From: an uncultured bacterium
Lineage (GTDB): Bacteria > Cyanobacteriota > Cyanobacteriia > Cyanobacteriales > Coleofasciculaceae
DNA: 8,177 bases
Direction: 5' to 3'
Assembly: GCA_965364435.1 (NCBI GenBank)
Contig: CBDTXL010000188.1
Span: 1-8,177 of the forward strand
Part shown: positions 2,699 to 7,305 of the stretch, in pieces
Position numbering within the stretch: position 1 is the first letter of the stretch
How the letters are laid out: each line of letters starts with the position of its first letter
The notes under the pieces: model-generated
What the model saw: only the letters and a program-made list of their open reading frames with translations
Databases searched by the model: none
Told to the model about the DNA's origin: nothing
Made by a program: the position numbers and the translations under genes

Positions 2699-3697
2699 CT
2701 AAGTCCAAGCACGGAAGAAGGTGTTATCTTGCCAGCTGGCAGCTGTGCGTTGCTCAATCTGTGCTAAGGATGCCTCATTAAGTGGCTGGAATGCTCGTGC
2801 TACTTCCACATTGGACTCTAACTGAGCGACGCTTTCAGCAGCAATGATGCAACAATGCACTCCAGGCTGGGAGAGAGTATATCCCATTGCTTGGTGCATC
2901 CCATCCAGAACTCCTGGTTTGAACAAACGCCCATAGGCTGGGACTTTCATGGCTATGACGCCGACTCCCTTCTGACGTGCTACTGGCAGCACGGTGGGAA
3001 TGAAGGGACGCGGATGATGTTTGTCTGCGGCGTTGATGCAAATGAGGGTGGTGTCGAAGGGATATCGACGCAACCCTTCTGCGATAATATCTGGCTCGTG
3101 ATGACCGCTAATGCCAGCAAAGCGAATGAGTTTCTGTGCTTTGGCTTCTTCTAAAGCTTTTGCGGCTCCGTCTTTACTAAAGATTTTGTCCAGTTCTTCC
3201 TTAAAGGAGACGTGGTGAAGTTGCCAGAGATCGAGGTAGTCGGTGTTGAGGCGTTTTAGCGATCGCTCCAACTCCTTCCATACTCCATCGCGATCGCGTT
3301 CTGCTGTCTTACTTGCCAAAAATACCTTCTCTCGGTGCGATGGCAGTACTTTCCCCAAATAATCTTCACTTGGTCCATAACTAGATGCTGTATCAAAGTA
3401 GCGGATACCCAATTCCAAAGCACGTTGGATAATCGCTACGGCATCCCGTTCGCGGTTCTCCCAGGATAACGGCGTTTGCCCTGCACCCCCTAAACCGAAG
3501 ATTGGCACACGGACACCAGTGTTGCCTAACTCTCGTTCTGGCATGGCTGTTGTGCTTGGCGGCTGGTTTGTTGTTACTGATGGTTGGTCTTTTGAAGCAG
3601 AGGTGAGATTTTGTGTCAACGCTGCACCTCCGATAATTCCACCAGCAACAGCAACACTCGTCGTCAAAAAAGTGCGTCTTGTTGTTTTTCGATTCAT
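2699..3697 (-). CDS. Aldo/keto reductase family oxidoreductase with an N-terminal twin-arginine (Tat) signal peptide
   Basis: ATG at 3697. A GGAG on the coding strand (complement of 3707-3710) lies 9 nt upstream. The N-terminus MNRKTTRRTFLTTSVAVAGGIIGGAALT has the T-R-R-x-F-L Tat motif plus a hydrophobic region. It is followed by a Ser/Thr/Pro/Gln linker and then a canonical AKR core: 'LGNTGVRVPIFGLGG', 'RYFDTASSYG' (catalytic Asp/Tyr), 'VFLASK' (Lys) and 'DYLDLWQLHH' (His). Confidence 0.9.
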   Translation of the reverse strand: MNRKTTRRTFLTTSVAVAGGIIGGAALTQNLTSASKDQPSVTTNQPPSTTAMPERELGNTGVRVPIFGLGGAGQTPLSWENRERDAVAIIQRALELGIRYFDTASSYGPSEDYLGKVLPSHREKVFLASKTAERDRDGVWKELERSLKRLNTDYLDLWQLHHVSFKEELDKIFSKDGAAKALEEAKAQKLIRFAGISGHHEPDIIAEGLRRYPFDTTLICINAADKHHPRPFIPTVLPVARQKGVGVIAMKVPAYGRLFKPGVLDGMHQAMGYTLSQPGVHCCIIAAESVAQLESNVEVARAFQPLNEASLAQIEQRTAASWQDNTFFRAWT

Positions 3698-3999: not shown

Positions 4000-4440
4000 A
4001 TGGACCCTGCAACATTGTCTGCGGCAGCGATCGCTACTTTGGTCATCACAAAAGCGTTTGAGAAGACTGGTGAAGTGCTTGGGGAAAAGGCACTGGAGCA
4101 AGGCGGAAAGTTGGTAAGATTGCTGAAAGAGCGATTTCCCAAGGCAGATTCGGCACTTGCGCGGGTGGAGGAGAAACCGGAAGATTGGGGAGAAGCGGTT
4201 CTGGAAGTTGAAGCGGCGGCTAAGGCAGATCCTGAAGTGGCAGAAGCGGTTCAGGAGGTAGCGACGGCGGCGAAGGAAAACGCGAATGCCGAGATTGTGC
4301 AAAAACTCCAAGCGATAGAAGATGCAATAAAGGCTCAACAACCCACCACTAAACAGGAATTTGGTAAAGTGGCAGAGGTAGTTGAAAAAGCCGTTTTTGG
4401 CAATACCTTCCGGGATTTTAGTGGTGGCGTTCACTTTTGA
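4000..4440 (+). CDS. 146-aa all-helical, Glu/Ala/Lys-rich protein with a hydrophobic N-terminal helix. It reads as the detached N-terminal (putative effector or adaptor) domain of the downstream NB-ARC/TPR protein
   Basis: ATG 4000 is the first start after the in-frame TAA at 3970-3972. MDPATLSAAAIATLVIT is an uncharged hydrophobic segment. It is followed by amphipathic, acidic helical sequence (KAFEKTGEVLGEKALEQGGKLVRLLKERF ... DPEVAEAVQEVATAAKENANAEIVQKLQAIEDAIKAQ). The protein ends FGNTFRDFSGGVHF-TGA (4438-4440). It shares the frame and the G-ending codon style of the NB-ARC region downstream. The antisense 152-aa ORF is Arg/Cys/Phe/Leu-rich and looks like a shadow ORF. Confidence 0.7.
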   Translation: MDPATLSAAAIATLVITKAFEKTGEVLGEKALEQGGKLVRLLKERFPKADSALARVEEKPEDWGEAVLEVEAAAKADPEVAEAVQEVATAAKENANAEIVQKLQAIEDAIKAQQPTTKQEFGKVAEVVEKAVFGNTFRDFSGGVHF

Positions 4441-4554
4441 CTGAACTCGCCCGAACCGGAACGGGTAAAGTTAAATCCACCACAAAATCTTCCCCGTAGC
4501 GGTGTTGTTAAGTTTGTCGGACGGGAAGAGATACTCGATACTTTACACCAGCAG

Positions 4555-6450
4555 TTGCAGCAAAACGAGCGTATTGCCATTTCTGCGATCGCGGGAATGG
4601 GGGGTGTTGGGAAAACGGAATTGGCGCTGCAATATGCTGGCGAACAGTGGAAGCAGGGGAGGTATCCCGGTGGGGTTTGCTGGTTGCAGGCGCGGGGAGT
4701 AGATTTGAGGATTCAAATTGTAGCGTTTGCTAGGGCGCATTTGCCGTTGCGTATCCCGGAGGATTTGGAGTTGTCGCTTCAGGTAGCGTACTGCTGGCGG
4801 AATTGGTTGCCGGGGGAGGTGCTGATAGTACTGGATGATGTGACCGATTATAAGCAAGTGAGGGAGTACCTGCCGTCAGATGCGCCTCGATTTAAGGTGC
4901 TAATTACAACTCGGTTGCAGTTGGGTGCATCGATTGAGCATTTGTCGCTGGATGTCCTCAAACCTAGAGCAGCACTGGTTTTATTGGAGTCGCTGGTTGA
5001 TCGGGAACGACTGAAAAAAGAGCCGTGGGTGGCGCGAAAACTCTGTCGGTGGCTGGGATATTTGCCGTTGGGTTTGGAGTTGGTGGGGCGATATCTGAGG
5101 CGGAAACCGGATTTGTCTCTGGCGGAAATACTGTCTCGCTTGCAGGCAAAACGGTTAGAACAGTTAGCGCTGAAAAAGCCCAAGTCAGAGAATGATATGA
5201 CAGCTCAGTTAGGGGTGCAAGATGCTTTTGAGTTGAGTTGGCAAGAATTGGATGAGTCAGCGCAGAAGTTGGGGTTATGCTTGAGTTTATTTGCCCTTGC
5301 TCCGATTCCGTGGCAGTTGGTGGAACGATGCTTGCCGGATAGTGACCCAGAGGAACTCGAAGAGATTAGAGACTATAGTCTGGTCAATCTGCATCTGGTT
5401 GGGCGAAAAGGAGACAACACCTACCAGTTGCACCAACTGATTCGAGAATTCTTTTGTGCGAAGCTGAAACAGTCAGCAGAAGCCGACGACCTGAAGCGGG
5501 GATTTTGTCAGGTAATGGTGGCTGTGGCAAAGGAAATTCCTTATGAACCTAGCTGTGAGTTAATTGCTGCTCTCGCGCCTGCAATTCCTCATCTAGTAGA
5601 GGTCGCTGATCATCTGACCACCTATCTTAGCGACGAAAATTGTGCAGTACCTTTTTCACGTTTGGGTAGGTTCTATGAAGGTCAAGAGTTTTATGTTCAG
5701 GCAGAATGCTGGTATAAGCAGTGCTTAGAAGCTAGCAAAAAGCGCTTGGGTGATGAACATCAGACCGTAACAACCAGTCTTAATGATCTGGCTTACATCT
5801 ACAAATCTCAAGGTCGTTACTTGGAAGCAGAGCCGTTATATATAAAAGCACTAGCCCTAAGGAAACGCTTACTTGGAGGAGAACACACCAATGTGGCACA
5901 AAGTCTCAACAACTTAGCAGGACTTTACCGTAAGCAAGGTCGCTACTCAGAAGCAGAACCGTTTTTGCTTGAAGCGCTAGCACTAAGAAAACGCTTACTT
6001 GGAGAAGAACACACCAATGTGGGACAAAGCCTTAACCATTTGGCGTATCTTTACTATGAGCAAGGTCGTTACTTAGAAGCAGAGTCGTTTTACCTGCAAG
6101 CTTTATCGCTATACAAAGACCTTCTGAAGGAGAATCATCCTCATACAGCAACTAGCCTTAATAATCTGGCACTACTATACGAAGCTCAGGGGCGTTACTT
6201 GGAAGCTGAACCTTTGTATCTTCAAGCGTTGAAATTAAGACAAAGATTGATAGGAAAAGAACATCCGCGTTCAGTAATTAGTCTTACTAATCTGGCTAAG
6301 TTATACCATACTCAAGGACGCTACACTGAAGCCGAACTCCTGTATGTGGAAGCGTTGGAGATTGCGGAACGAACTTTAGGGGTAAATCATCCCAACACTG
6401 TCACCATCCGTGAGAATCTTCAAAAACTGCGCGATAAGCACGCTGCCTGA
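4555..6450 (+). CDS. NB-ARC (AP-ATPase/STAND, NLR-like) NTPase fused to six kinesin-light-chain-type TPR units. The called TTG start is probably artificial, because homology extends upstream to 4441
   Basis: NB-ARC hallmarks: Walker A GMGGVGKT (4594-4617); Walker B VLIVLDDV (4819-4842); 'KVLITTR' sensor-I-like motif; 'GYLPLGLELVG' (GLPL motif); winged-helix end 'YQLHQLIREF' (MHD-equivalent). These are followed by six repeats of 'SLNNLA.LY..QGRY.EAEPLY..AL.L...LLG.EH'. The pre-P-loop segment NLPRSGVVKFVGREEILDTLHQQ is encoded at 4486-4554, upstream of the called start. Stop TGA at 6448-6450. Confidence 0.9.
   Translation: MQQNERIAISAIAGMGGVGKTELALQYAGEQWKQGRYPGGVCWLQARGVDLRIQIVAFARAHLPLRIPEDLELSLQVAYCWRNWLPGEVLIVLDDVTDYKQVREYLPSDAPRFKVLITTRLQLGASIEHLSLDVLKPRAALVLLESLVDRERLKKEPWVARKLCRWLGYLPLGLELVGRYLRRKPDLSLAEILSRLQAKRLEQLALKKPKSENDMTAQLGVQDAFELSWQELDESAQKLGLCLSLFALAPIPWQLVERCLPDSDPEELEEIRDYSLVNLHLVGRKGDNTYQLHQLIREFFCAKLKQSAEADDLKRGFCQVMVAVAKEIPYEPSCELIAALAPAIPHLVEVADHLTTYLSDENCAVPFSRLGRFYEGQEFYVQAECWYKQCLEASKKRLGDEHQTVTTSLNDLAYIYKSQGRYLEAEPLYIKALALRKRLLGGEHTNVAQSLNNLAGLYRKQGRYSEAEPFLLEALALRKRLLGEEHTNVGQSLNHLAYLYYEQGRYLEAESFYLQALSLYKDLLKENHPHTATSLNNLALLYEAQGRYLEAEPLYLQALKLRQRLIGKEHPRSVISLTNLAKLYHTQGRYTEAELLYVEALEIAERTLGVNHPNTVTIRENLQKLRDKHAA
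5653..6405 (+). repeat. Array of six 126-nt (42-aa; the first unit is 41 aa) TPR units inside the NLR-like CDS
   Basis: The repeat unit SLN.LA.LY..QGRY.EAE..Y..AL.L...L.G..H..... occurs at an exact 126-nt period. For example, 5848-5901 and 5974-6027 differ at only 5 of 54 nt. Confidence 0.9.
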
Positions 6451-6476
6451 AGCCGATAAGCCTGACGGGATGCTAT

Positions 6477-6577
6477 GCGATCGCGCTTTTCCTTCTCAAG
6501 TGCGATCGCTGACAAGGTGAGGCTTCATTGTGGAGGCGATCGCGCTTGTTAACTAAGAAAAGGGAAAGTGCGATCGC
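6477..6577. repeat. Two tandem hairpins whose 12-bp stems are each built from a pair of HIP1 octamers
   Basis: Hairpin 1: GCGATCGCGCTT (6477-6488), 9-nt loop ttccttctc, AAGTGCGATCGC (6498-6509). Hairpin 2: GCGATCGCGCTT (6536-6547), 18-nt loop, AAGTGCGATCGC (6566-6577). Each stem has 11 Watson-Crick pairs plus one G.T. Four HIP1 sites fall within 101 bp, starting 27 nt after the NLR-like stop codon. Confidence 0.6.
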
Positions 6578-6640
6578 CATTCAGACAAGCTTCGCCAAAG
6601 CTGATAATTAAAATTGATAAGGTGAATCAGGCAGATAGTG

Positions 6641-6961
6641 ATGACATCCCTAACGAATACCCCCCATAAGTATGTGCAACTTGATGAGCGCAATGTGCCA
6701 ATCATTGCCGGAACTACCATGAAAGTCGTCGAATTGGTCATGGCTCAGATAGCGTATGGTTGGAGTCCTGAAGAGTTGCAATTTCAACATCCCTATTTGA
6801 CAATGAGCCAGATTCATTCGGCATTGGCTTATTACTGGGATAACAAAGAGGAACTTGATGCAGATATCAAGCGACGAGAGGAGTATTCCGAAAAGTTACG
6901 CAGGGAAGCAGGTGAATCTCCTTTTGTTGCTAGACTACGGGCACAGGGGCTATTGAAGTGA
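6641..6961 (+). CDS. DUF433 domain protein, putative antitoxin of a type II TA pair
   Basis: 'NVPIIAGTTMKVVELVMAQIAYGWSPEELQFQHPYLTMSQIHSALAYYWDNKEE' matches the DUF433/COG2442 pattern (I.GTR..V..+......G.S.EEI....P.L....I..AL.YY). The start is either ATG 6641 or the adjacent GTG 6638. The stop TGA (6959-6961) overlaps the next gene's start. Confidence 0.85.
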   Translation: MTSLTNTPHKYVQLDERNVPIIAGTTMKVVELVMAQIAYGWSPEELQFQHPYLTMSQIHSALAYYWDNKEELDADIKRREEYSEKLRREAGESPFVARLRAQGLLK

Positions 6962-7305
6962 GTCTAGCCTTCTACATGGATGAACACATACACCGAGCAG
7001 TTACGGCTGGGCTGCGTCTACGAGGTGTAGATGTTCTAACCGTTCAGGAAGATGAACGCACTAGCTTCCCTGACCCGATAATACTTGACCGTGCCACTGA
7101 ACTTCAGCGACTTTTGTTTACACAAGACGAAGATTTTCTAGCTGAAGCTAATCGCCGTCAGGAGCTGGGCATGAATTTCACCGGTATCATCTACGCCTAT
7201 CAATTGCTTGTCTCTGTTGGCGATTGTGTGCGTGACCTGGAAATCATTGCTAAAGCTGGCAAACCTGAAGAGTTTGCCAACCGAGTCCAATATCTGCCCT
7301 TGTAG
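6958..7305 (+). CDS. DUF5615 / Mut7-C-type PIN-like protein, putative toxin of a type II TA pair
   Basis: 'LAFYMDEHIHRAVTAGLRLRGVDVLTVQE......DPIILDRATELQRLLFTQDEDFL' fits the DUF5615/COG4634 pattern (F..DE.....+...L...G.DV......G....D..+...A..E.R+L+T.D.DF). GTG 6958 overlaps the upstream TGA as GTGA, which suggests translational coupling. An alternative ATG at 6976 would remove the first beta-strand. Confidence 0.85.
   Translation: MSLAFYMDEHIHRAVTAGLRLRGVDVLTVQEDERTSFPDPIILDRATELQRLLFTQDEDFLAEANRRQELGMNFTGIIYAYQLLVSVGDCVRDLEIIAKAGKPEEFANRVQYLPL

Follow-up and report, generated by a model that had tools for sequence, protein, structure and literature searches.

A structured in-frame UGA between Bell-domain proteins and NLR sensors of cyanobacteria as a candidate programmed read-through junction

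When a short open reading frame (ORF) is closed by a stop codon and its frame runs on at once into a much larger protein, is that stop a lesion, a boundary between two genes or a recoding signal? The question is raised by a locus on contig CBDTXL010000188.1 (assembly GCA_965364435.1; Coleofasciculaceae, Cyanobacteriota), of which a stretch of 8,177 nucleotides (nt), here called the window, was analysed. In the window an ORF of 146 amino acids (aa), encoding a helical domain of the Bell type with a putative amyloid motif at its C-terminus, ends in TGA, and the same frame then encodes an NB-ARC NTPase and TPR repeats, i.e. an NLR sensor. We propose, with a probability of about 0.6, that Bell domain, motif, UGA, linker, NB-ARC and TPR form a single frame from which programmed UGA read-through yields an abundant effector and a rare effector-sensor fusion.

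An earlier note on this DNA, made from the letters only, had described an ORF at 4000..4440 with a helical 146-aa domain, an in-frame TGA and then NB-ARC, and this description was borne out by the ATG start, the helices of the AlphaFold2 (AF2) model and the PF00931 match. As listed in Table 1, the frame of the 146-aa ORF stays open for 669 codons past the TGA and covers the NB-ARC module and six TPR units. Between the TGA and NB-ARC the window contains neither a start codon nor a second copy of the motif. The first ATG, GTG or TTG after the TGA is the TTG at 4555, which lies beyond FVGRE and 13 codons before the P-loop. Likewise, no promoter-like or terminator-like site was found in between on the + strand of 4000-6450. 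The metagenome gene caller places the NLR start at a Met inside the P-loop (617 aa; 4597 in the window; the gene at 4697-6550 in L175), and an NLR call that begins there is truncated. The window hence combines a leaky UGA-C with an in-frame coding ORF that has no start of its own, as a read-through gene would. The product of 4000..4437 is probably the main translation product of the gene. The JGI names given to the 146-aa protein and its relatives (cysteinyl-tRNA synthetase, YciM, MinD-like ATPase etc.) look spurious.

The junction was then compared over 81 family loci, namely the window and 80 further genome loci (L001-L080). The Bell ORF ended in TGA in 69 of the 81, and an in-frame continuation of 100-1228 codons was present in 65 of them all. 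Of 64 distinct contexts, 62 had C as the base after TGA; the codon after the stop was CTA in about two thirds of the loci, and the consensus 3' of TGA was CTR-NAN-TCG-CCY-GAA-NGG-GAA-CRG-GTA-AAG-TYA-AAT-CCC. In 14 of the 54 NB-ARC-type loci, the window and L001 included, no ATG, GTG or TTG occurred from TGA to FVGR. The downstream modules were NB-ARC-TPR in most loci, nSTAND1-WD40 in L010, NACHT in L030, L044 and L053, and NB-ARC/APAF1_C in L033, and several genomes carried two or three TGA-junction loci with different sensors. The earlier note had also supposed that the TGA causes the short protein to be made on its own; judged from the conserved stop, this appears to be the rule in the family and no accident. 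What that note missed is that the TGA, with its context, looks like a conserved and structured signal of the recoding type and not like a lesion.

Three further loci continue past the TGA without an NTPase. A predicted transmembrane (TM) stretch and a PsbP-like domain follow the TGA in L003 (4436-5155) and L042 (4439-5098), and a PPC domain follows it in L051 (4430-5386), in which the RNA element described below is absent.

The sequence 3' of the stop is conserved at the level of RNA. Within the first 13 codons after TGA, synonymous choice was nearly invariant: TCG was used in 47/47 cases, GAA in 45/45, CGG in 29/29, GTA in 37/38, AAG in 48/48, TTA in 27/27 and AAT in 42/42. Mean synonymous entropy was 0.31 bits in this stretch versus 0.86 bits later. 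The amino acids of these 13 codons are less conserved than those of the P-loop, while the P-loop codons vary freely. Counting from the U of UGA as position 0, an outer stem pairs UGACU with AGUYA and so contains the stop codon itself, and an inner stem of 5 bp (GCCCG/CGGGU) begins 8 nt after the stop and carries a G-rich loop of 8 nt. The element of the window (4438-4480) has a minimum free energy (MFE) of -11.4 kcal/mol with a z score of -2.42.

Pairing was preserved in 85.6% of cells over 58 distinct genome sequences, compared with at most 45.7% when the partners were slid, and double changes were seen in four of the five inner-stem pairs. Covariation was counted in 118 distinct elements, whose collecting pattern had left the pairing of 12/27 and 14/25 free. 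Pair 12/27 was C-G in 69, U-A in 47, U-G in 2 and C-A in none (Fisher p 5.5e-31), and pair 14/25 was C-G in 70, U-A in 25, U-G in 23 and C-A in none (Fisher p 1.2e-12), both p values being uncorrected for phylogeny. Position 34 alternates between U and C; either base pairs with G1, and the codon switches between Leu and Ser. A structure about 8 nt 3' of the stop, covariation and suppressed synonymous variation, which are features of read-through signals, are therefore all found at this junction. The hairpin loop may in addition form a pseudoknot with a downstream CCC. Complementarity between the two was always present; because their covariation is weak (4.24 bp for the own partner versus 4.13 ± 0.05 bp for permuted ones, a value that 30 of 1000 permutations reach), we report the pseudoknot as possible only.

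The element is specific to this position. The pattern TGACTRNANYCGYCYGN8CRGRYAAAG occurred 45 times in 612 kb of family loci, every time exactly at the Bell stop. When metagenome contigs were scanned with the same pattern and no protein information, 94 loci with 95 sites were recovered. Practically all of these sites had an ORF ending at the TGA and an in-frame continuation, lay at effector|STAND junctions and, in most cases, had a P-loop about 48-55 codons downstream. The upstream frame matched the Bell profile in 76 of the 95, and most of the others were cut by contig ends. Some of the non-Bell upstream frames encode other effectors with BASS-like tails. On balance, and with a little less assurance than for the single gene, we favour the reading that the structured UGA read-through signal is a portable junction which, across cyanobacterial orders, joins effectors (Bell, TIR, alpha/beta-hydrolase), all with an amyloid motif at their end, to STAND/NLR sensors (NB-ARC-TPR, NACHT, nSTAND1-WD40) and even to TM/PsbP-like modules, so that one ORF would give the free effector and, in a low fixed proportion, the fusion by which it is seeded.

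Individual metagenome loci deserve description. In L114 a TIR domain (ORF 210-869, + strand; TIR_2 3.8e-16) with the tail ...GWQVNVSGGTVNL... stands before the TGA and the element. DUF676/PGAP1-type alpha/beta-hydrolases occupy this place in L091 (411-1274, +), L131 (707-1609, +) and L139 (509-1474, +); an alpha/beta-hydrolase tail reads ...FQTQIEGGTAYI... and is BASS9-like, and some tails read GGTAYI. The frame continues into a STAND/NLR protein in each of these four. L083 contains tandem Bell-NLR units on a 9.8-kb contig, with TGA-element junctions at 4004 and 9648, about 5.6 kb apart; at the second junction the frame is closed after 25 codons.

What is the short protein? A search of 5.8 billion proteins returned 169 homologues of the 146 aa at E<=1e-3, all from filamentous or colonial cyanobacteria and 104-161 aa long except one of 248 aa. 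Among 1.84 billion cluster representatives, a profile search found 518 matches, of which the best 150 were examined for length and fusions: four were long, with HEAT repeats, a dynamin-like GTPase or uncharacterised regions. Neither the 169 homologues nor these best 150 representatives contained a Bell-NB-ARC fusion joined by a sense codon. By this measure of homology the 4000-4437 feature is far beyond chance. The family core follows the consensus MEPxTLTAAAIATLVITKAFEKTGExLGEK...QPLDYGxAVLEVEAAAKxDPE. One family member (P0098), BAZ70468.1 of Fischerella NIES-4106, appears in Table S2 of Dyrka et al. 2020 (bioRxiv 10.1101/2020.01.06.895854) on the Bell side of a BASS5 Bell/NLR pair, and the window protein aligns to it over residues 1-103 with 50% identity (BLASTP 3e-30). 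An N-terminal acidic residue followed by a hydrophobic helix is the published Bell/Hell/Bab signature (bioRxiv 10.1101/2020.01.06.895854; 10.1101/2024.11.07.622273), and the window protein and its family carry M-[DE]-P and then a hydrophobic helix. Because of this homology and this signature, the window protein is classified by sequence as a Bell-domain protein, a new member of a known family, and the Bell option, which the earlier note had listed among several, is the one that held.

The AF2 model agrees with this assignment. Computed from 78 homologues (pLDDT 74.5, pTM 0.66), it has seven helices (residues 3-19, 29-45, 47-58, 60-76, 78-94, 97-113 and 118-131) and a disordered tail (135-146). 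The protein is therefore predicted to be short and all-helical, with an N-terminal hydrophobic helix and an acidic residue at position 2/3 (MDPATLSAAAIATLVIT), as expected of a Bell domain, and helix 3-19 is the counterpart of the 'MEPIS'-type region in Bell, Hell and Bab domains. Hydrophobicity peaks in a 15-residue window from residue 6 (Kyte-Doolittle mean 1.77), which supports the claim of a hydrophobic first segment; the claim that this segment is uncharged fails, since residue 2 is the Asp that marks the family. The helices said to be strongly acidic are acidic indeed, and moderately so would be the better description (isoelectric point 4.81; 26 D+E versus 18 K+R).

Other identities found no such agreement. 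The 146 aa gave nothing above noise against Pfam, NCBIfam and PADLOC, and the candidates Hs1pro-1_C, VSG_B and JetC were rejected as below threshold. A PDB profile search returned designed coiled coils, consensus TPRs and OGT TPRs only, and these matches are compositional. The proposed resemblance to HeLo, HELL, RPW8/CC and MLKL domains was not upheld: no Pfam match to HeLo, HELL, RPW8, Rx_N (CC) or MLKL 4HB was found at E<=1, and Foldseek of the model against PDB, with a best E of 2 and TM-scores below 0.35, returned no HeLo, MLKL, ZAR1, CC-like or Bab fold. The relation among HeLo/HELL/Bell-type families is described as 'exceedingly low' in sequence and structure (bioRxiv 10.1101/2024.11.07.622273).

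The tails of the family are variable, rich in N, G, F and Q, and mostly terminated by F. In the last 20 aa, N, G and F account for 17%, 14% and 9%, compared with 2%, 5% and 2% in the core. The RDFSGGVHF part of the window tail resembles BASS2 (ARDVSGGIHF, HVVQGRDFSG), which has so far been listed for actinobacteria only (Dyrka 2020 Table S2, bioRxiv 10.1101/2020.01.06.895854). The C-terminal ~16 residues of the window protein, which the earlier note had recorded as a Gly/Phe stretch without seeing this likeness, are thus a putative amyloid signalling motif resembling the BASS type. Other family members have tails of BASS5, BASS7 or BASS10 type, and the FQGNT-type tails of TGA loci are absent from Dyrka 2020 Table S2. 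The one long homologue, P0093 (248 aa), has an N-terminal extension of about 120 aa whose N/G/Y-rich opening (NIGGGNYNECIQGNYIQGDYYN) may be another amyloid-type motif.

Roughly a dozen of the 80 genome loci are arranged differently. Their Bell ORF ends in TAA or TAG, or in TGA without in-frame continuation, and 20-70 nt downstream lies the next ORF, which has a Met start of its own and an N-terminus that repeats the Bell tail. The copies on the Bell protein and on the NLR read GKLAEKIGMVIQGGTVNITNFNV / MPEDSGKLTEKIGIYGK... in L006, KLAEKIGIVVQGGTVNI / MAEKIGVVNYGKTNIG... in L021, KLAEKIGQVVVGGTGSIQNQSF / MPEDTGKFAEKIGVVAHNSTVNIHNQNIG... in L068 and L074, and STFKQVGKIQANEVNF / SQVNQVGQINADTVNF in L059. 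Past the motif, these NLRs have the same linker as the TGA-type loci (...IPxNLPLSGVVEFVGRE...). By their sequence layout, the TAA/TAG relatives are the published amyloid-signalling arrangement of a Bell-BASS gene next to a BASS-NLR gene. An adjacent, separately translated NLR with its own motif copy is present in L006, L021, L059, L068 and L074 and absent from the window, which we file as a variant of the Bell/BASS pair because neither a start nor a second motif lies between its TGA and NB-ARC.

Two loci of this group are unusual. In L079 (4393-6354) the Bell-BASS gene is a classical one ended by TAG, and its motif-sharing partner is a 653-aa non-NLR protein (IIGFDLGDGESC...) whose sequence looks like an Hsp70/actin-like ATPase. 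In L024 the Bell ORF (4001-4435) ends in TGA-CTA-GAG-TCT, the frame is shut after six codons, and the next ORF (4877-7240, 787 aa) opens with another Bell-like core; the junction has perhaps decayed or been rearranged.

We infer the following course of events for the TGA-type gene. Most ribosomes would stop at the UGA and release the 15.6-kDa Bell-BASS effector, while a small fraction would decode it, most likely as Trp, and produce a Bell-BASS-NB-ARC-TPR protein of 92.1 kDa. In E. coli, Trp is the main residue inserted at TGA (PMC11126739). The leaky UGA-C context would favour decoding, and so would the hairpin, possibly a pseudoknot, 8 nt past the stop. Two products are proposed because UGA-C with CUR, an 8-nt spacer, a covarying stem and suppressed synonymous variation are the features of proven signals. 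Moreover, since the NLR of every classical relative carries the motif at its N-terminus, the NLR of the TGA variant could obtain it only through read-through. By analogy with HET-S/NWD2 and Bab/Agp, the NB-ARC/TPR part may sense a trigger and oligomerise, and the clustered motifs may nucleate an amyloid fold on which the free effector would be templated. The N-terminal hydrophobic helix of the effector would then be freed to attack the membrane, and membrane damage would kill the infected cell as abortive infection or regulated cell death. A single motif copy would serve both sensor and effector, and the efficiency of read-through would set their ratio.

The most serious rival, though in our view an unlikely one, is that two proteins are made without any read-through. 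The NLR would arise by coupled re-initiation at a nearby GTG or TTG or at some codon outside the canonical set, the hairpin would act in translational coupling or in the processing or stability of the mRNA, and an NLR without effector or motif would contact Bell in another way. Gene callers do annotate a separate NLR, and the classical relatives are two-gene systems. However, 14 of the 54 NB-ARC-type loci have no canonical start upstream of FVGR; the first one of the window is the TTG only 13 codons before the P-loop, and the caller begins at the Met within it. CTA, the predominant codon after the stop, is no known initiator, and initiation at CTG or CTA directly after the stop is hence unlikely as well. 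For coupling, zero spacing and identity of frame in 65 loci would be superfluous, and an NLR made in this way would miss the motif found at the N-terminus in all classical relatives. Conservation of the protein under synonymous variation also reaches upstream of the candidate starts: in PQNLPLSG the protein is kept while the codons vary (five codons for Leu, four for Gly and three to four for Pro), as is typical of translated sequence. Frameshifting was discarded, since the downstream ORF lies in frame 0 and TTC-TGA is what most loci have. A nonsense mutation or a sequencing error could have put the TGA into a Bell-NB-ARC-TPR fusion, which would make the locus a pseudogene; a single window could not dismiss this, yet 65 of 81 genome loci and 94 metagenome loci, from several cyanobacterial orders, have the same TGA at this place, and no sense-codon version was found. 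As TGA and 3' context are conserved, this reading is refuted and its probability is next to nil. Nor does the UGA seem to encode selenocysteine or another programmed amino acid with the hairpin as a bacterial SECIS-like element. The geometry is SECIS-like, with UGA in the lower stem and the upper stem 11 nt downstream of its U, but Rfam gave no match around the TGA at E<=10, SECIS included, and the site falls in a poorly conserved linker and not in a redox centre. No homologue among the 169 or the best 150 of the 518 representatives has Cys or any sense codon there, the selenocysteine-decoding trait is reported absent in Cyanobacteria, and the loop lacks the G-U features of SelB-binding loops, all of which leaves this option barely credible. 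The earlier note's own alternative, that the 146-aa domain is an adaptor of the effector-associated type (EAD) that recruits a separate effector by homotypic interaction and is no executioner, is very improbable too. The domain is small, all-helical and N-terminal to a STAND NTPase, like EADs. Classical NLRs, on the other hand, share a tail motif of about 20 aa and no globular domain with the Bell protein, which therefore counts against an adaptor; the protein is homologous to Bell proteins, Bell is interchangeable at the junction with TIR and alpha/beta-hydrolase, both of them effectors, no other effector gene is linked in the window, and direct domain fusions are rare, with none to enzymes of a second locus.

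Several points weigh against the read-through proposal itself. In 40 of the 54 NB-ARC-type loci a GTG or TTG lies 2-8 codons before FVGR, mostly a GTG 2-3 codons before it, so that separate initiation is possible there. Many of the loci that entered the covariation statistics are Nostoc paralogues, and the pseudoknot covaries little. The outer stem sequesters the stop codon and would have to melt as the ribosome arrives. Read-through in these organisms is deduced from sequence conservation, and the amyloid role of the window motif from its likeness to known motifs. The AF2 model is of moderate confidence, and its Foldseek search returned no HeLo/MLKL/CC-like fold. To our knowledge, structured read-through stimulators are not established for cellular bacterial genes.

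Table 1. Features of the Bell-NLR gene and its UGA junction (window coordinates)
Feature	Position	Strand	Basis or remark
Short ORF, 146 aa, 15.6 kDa (Bell-type helical domain and C-terminal amyloid-type motif)	4000..4437	+	ATG start, TGA stop
N-terminal hydrophobic helix, residues 3-19, PATLSAAAIATLVITKA, preceded by M-D-P	4006..4056	+	AF2, hydrophobicity, family consensus, literature
Conserved Bell core, residues 1-103, aligning with BAZ70468.1	4000..4308	+	BLASTP, Dyrka 2020 Table S2
C-terminal N/G/F-rich motif AVFGNTFRDFSGGVHF, putative amyloid signalling sequence	4390..4437	+	AF2 disorder, composition, BASS2 likeness
In-frame TGA followed by C (TGA-CTG), proposed programmed read-through site	4438..4440	+	conservation over family loci
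Conserved RNA element	4438..4479	+	synonymous suppression, pairing, covariation, MFE
RNA element, outer stem, stop codon included	4438-4442 / 4469-4473	+	
RNA element, inner stem	4449-4453 / 4462-4466	+	8-nt loop 4454-4461
RNA element, possible pseudoknot	4458-4460 with 4476-4478	+	
Linker LNSPEPERVKLNPPQNLPRSGVVK, without start codon	4441..4512	+	translated only if TGA is passed
NB-ARC NTPase module, FVGRE onward	4513..5184	+	PF00931 1.6e-16, residues 29-248 of the 4441 frame
P-loop GMGGVGKT	4594-4617	+	sequence
TPR sensor repeats, TPR_12/TPR_10, six units	5581..6375	+	Pfam
Final stop TAA of the long frame	6448..6450	+	predicted read-through product 816 aa, 92.1 kDa

The neighbouring genes of the window are of other kinds. 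Directly downstream of the NLR, two genes with a 4-nt overlap encode DUF433 (6638-6961, +; 107 aa) and DUF5615/Mut7-C-like (6958-7305, +; 115 aa) proteins, a pair that has the look of a toxin-antitoxin-like module. Upstream, an ORF of at least 448 aa (177-1523, +, notably about 880-1065), open at the window start, contains Chlamydia-PMP-type repeats, tandem GQQGEQQ(P/Q)VANEPA(S/P) repeats and a C-terminal DUF4114, and its product is probably a secreted or surface protein. On the opposite strand, an aldo/keto reductase with a twin-arginine-like N-terminus (MNRKTTRRTFLTT...; 2699-3697, -) adjoins a 314-aa ORF (1713-2657, -) that begins like a signal peptide and matches no Pfam family.

Earlier work had already described the Bell domain, BASS motifs and the connection of both with NLRs; the read-through-type junction is apparently new, as it is not described in Dyrka 2020, in Ibarlosa 2024, in two Aravind-lab surveys or in a wider, incomplete literature search. 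If our proposal is true, the annotation of hundreds of cyanobacterial NLR genes as truncated or effector-less is wrong, and bacteria use a structured read-through signal of the kind found in eukaryotic viruses. It would be the first time that programmed read-through with an RNA stimulator is seen throughout a family of cellular bacterial genes, and amyloid/NLR signalling would have a third architecture beside 'two genes' and 'all-in-one'. Sensor and effector motifs would stay identical because only one copy exists, and the sensor:effector ratio would be fixed by recoding efficiency.

UGA read-through by bacterial ribosomes has a precedent in A1, the read-through coat protein of phage Qbeta, a minor extended product that is needed for function. 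We know of no conserved 3' structure for A1, and it belongs to a phage gene unrelated to immunity.

The viral read-through signals of alphaviruses, tobraviruses and coltiviruses consist of UGA-CUA/CGG, a spacer of about 8 nt and a stem-loop (Firth et al. 2011, PMC3159437). They have in common with the window element the UGA-CUR, the distance of 8 nt to a stem that compensatory changes support, and a strong suppression of synonymous variation past the stop, a set of features that also defines proven signals of some Drosophila genes (PMC3159437). A short major plus a long minor product is the outcome that we propose for the window gene as well. The viral signals, however, act on eukaryotic ribosomes and have stems of 12 or more bp in elements of 100-150 nt, the murine leukaemia virus (MuLV) type being a pseudoknot, whereas the window element belongs to a bacterial host, is known from sequence alone, and has a 5-bp stem with an 8-nt loop and an outer stem that includes the stop.

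Among the amyloid systems, fungal HET-S/NWD2 and the 'all-in-one' HeLo-NLR proteins follow the same logic, in which amyloid nucleated by an NLR activates a helical domain that targets the membrane, and split and fused architectures both exist there. They differ in having no detectable likeness of sequence or fold to the window protein, and in being two genes or one fusion without a leaky-stop ORF. The Bab/Agp pair of E. coli ECOR25 (Ibarlosa et al. 2024, bioRxiv 10.1101/2024.11.07.622273) also has a small helical domain that is related to Bell and whose helix 1 is hydrophobic; the amyloid motif at the C-terminus recurs in the sensor, and the pair has been proven by experiment to kill the cell on phage infection in an amyloid-controlled abortive infection. 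Bab is shorter (Babybell, ~80 aa) and gave no sequence or structure match to the window protein, its sensor is TPR-GreA/B-PIN and not an NLR, and the system is made of two genes. Also close is the Bell/BASS pair (Dyrka 2020, bioRxiv 10.1101/2020.01.06.895854), with which the window shares the protein family (BAZ70468.1 being a member), the size range of 120-150 aa, the N-terminal acidic residue and hydrophobic helix, the C-terminal N/G/Q-rich motif, the partner types (NB-ARC/TPR, NACHT, WD40) and the taxa. The NLR of a published pair has a start of its own, in a separate ORF, and brings its own motif copy; in the window and in about 80% of the family loci examined it has neither, and follows in frame after a TGA that is accompanied by a conserved RNA structure.

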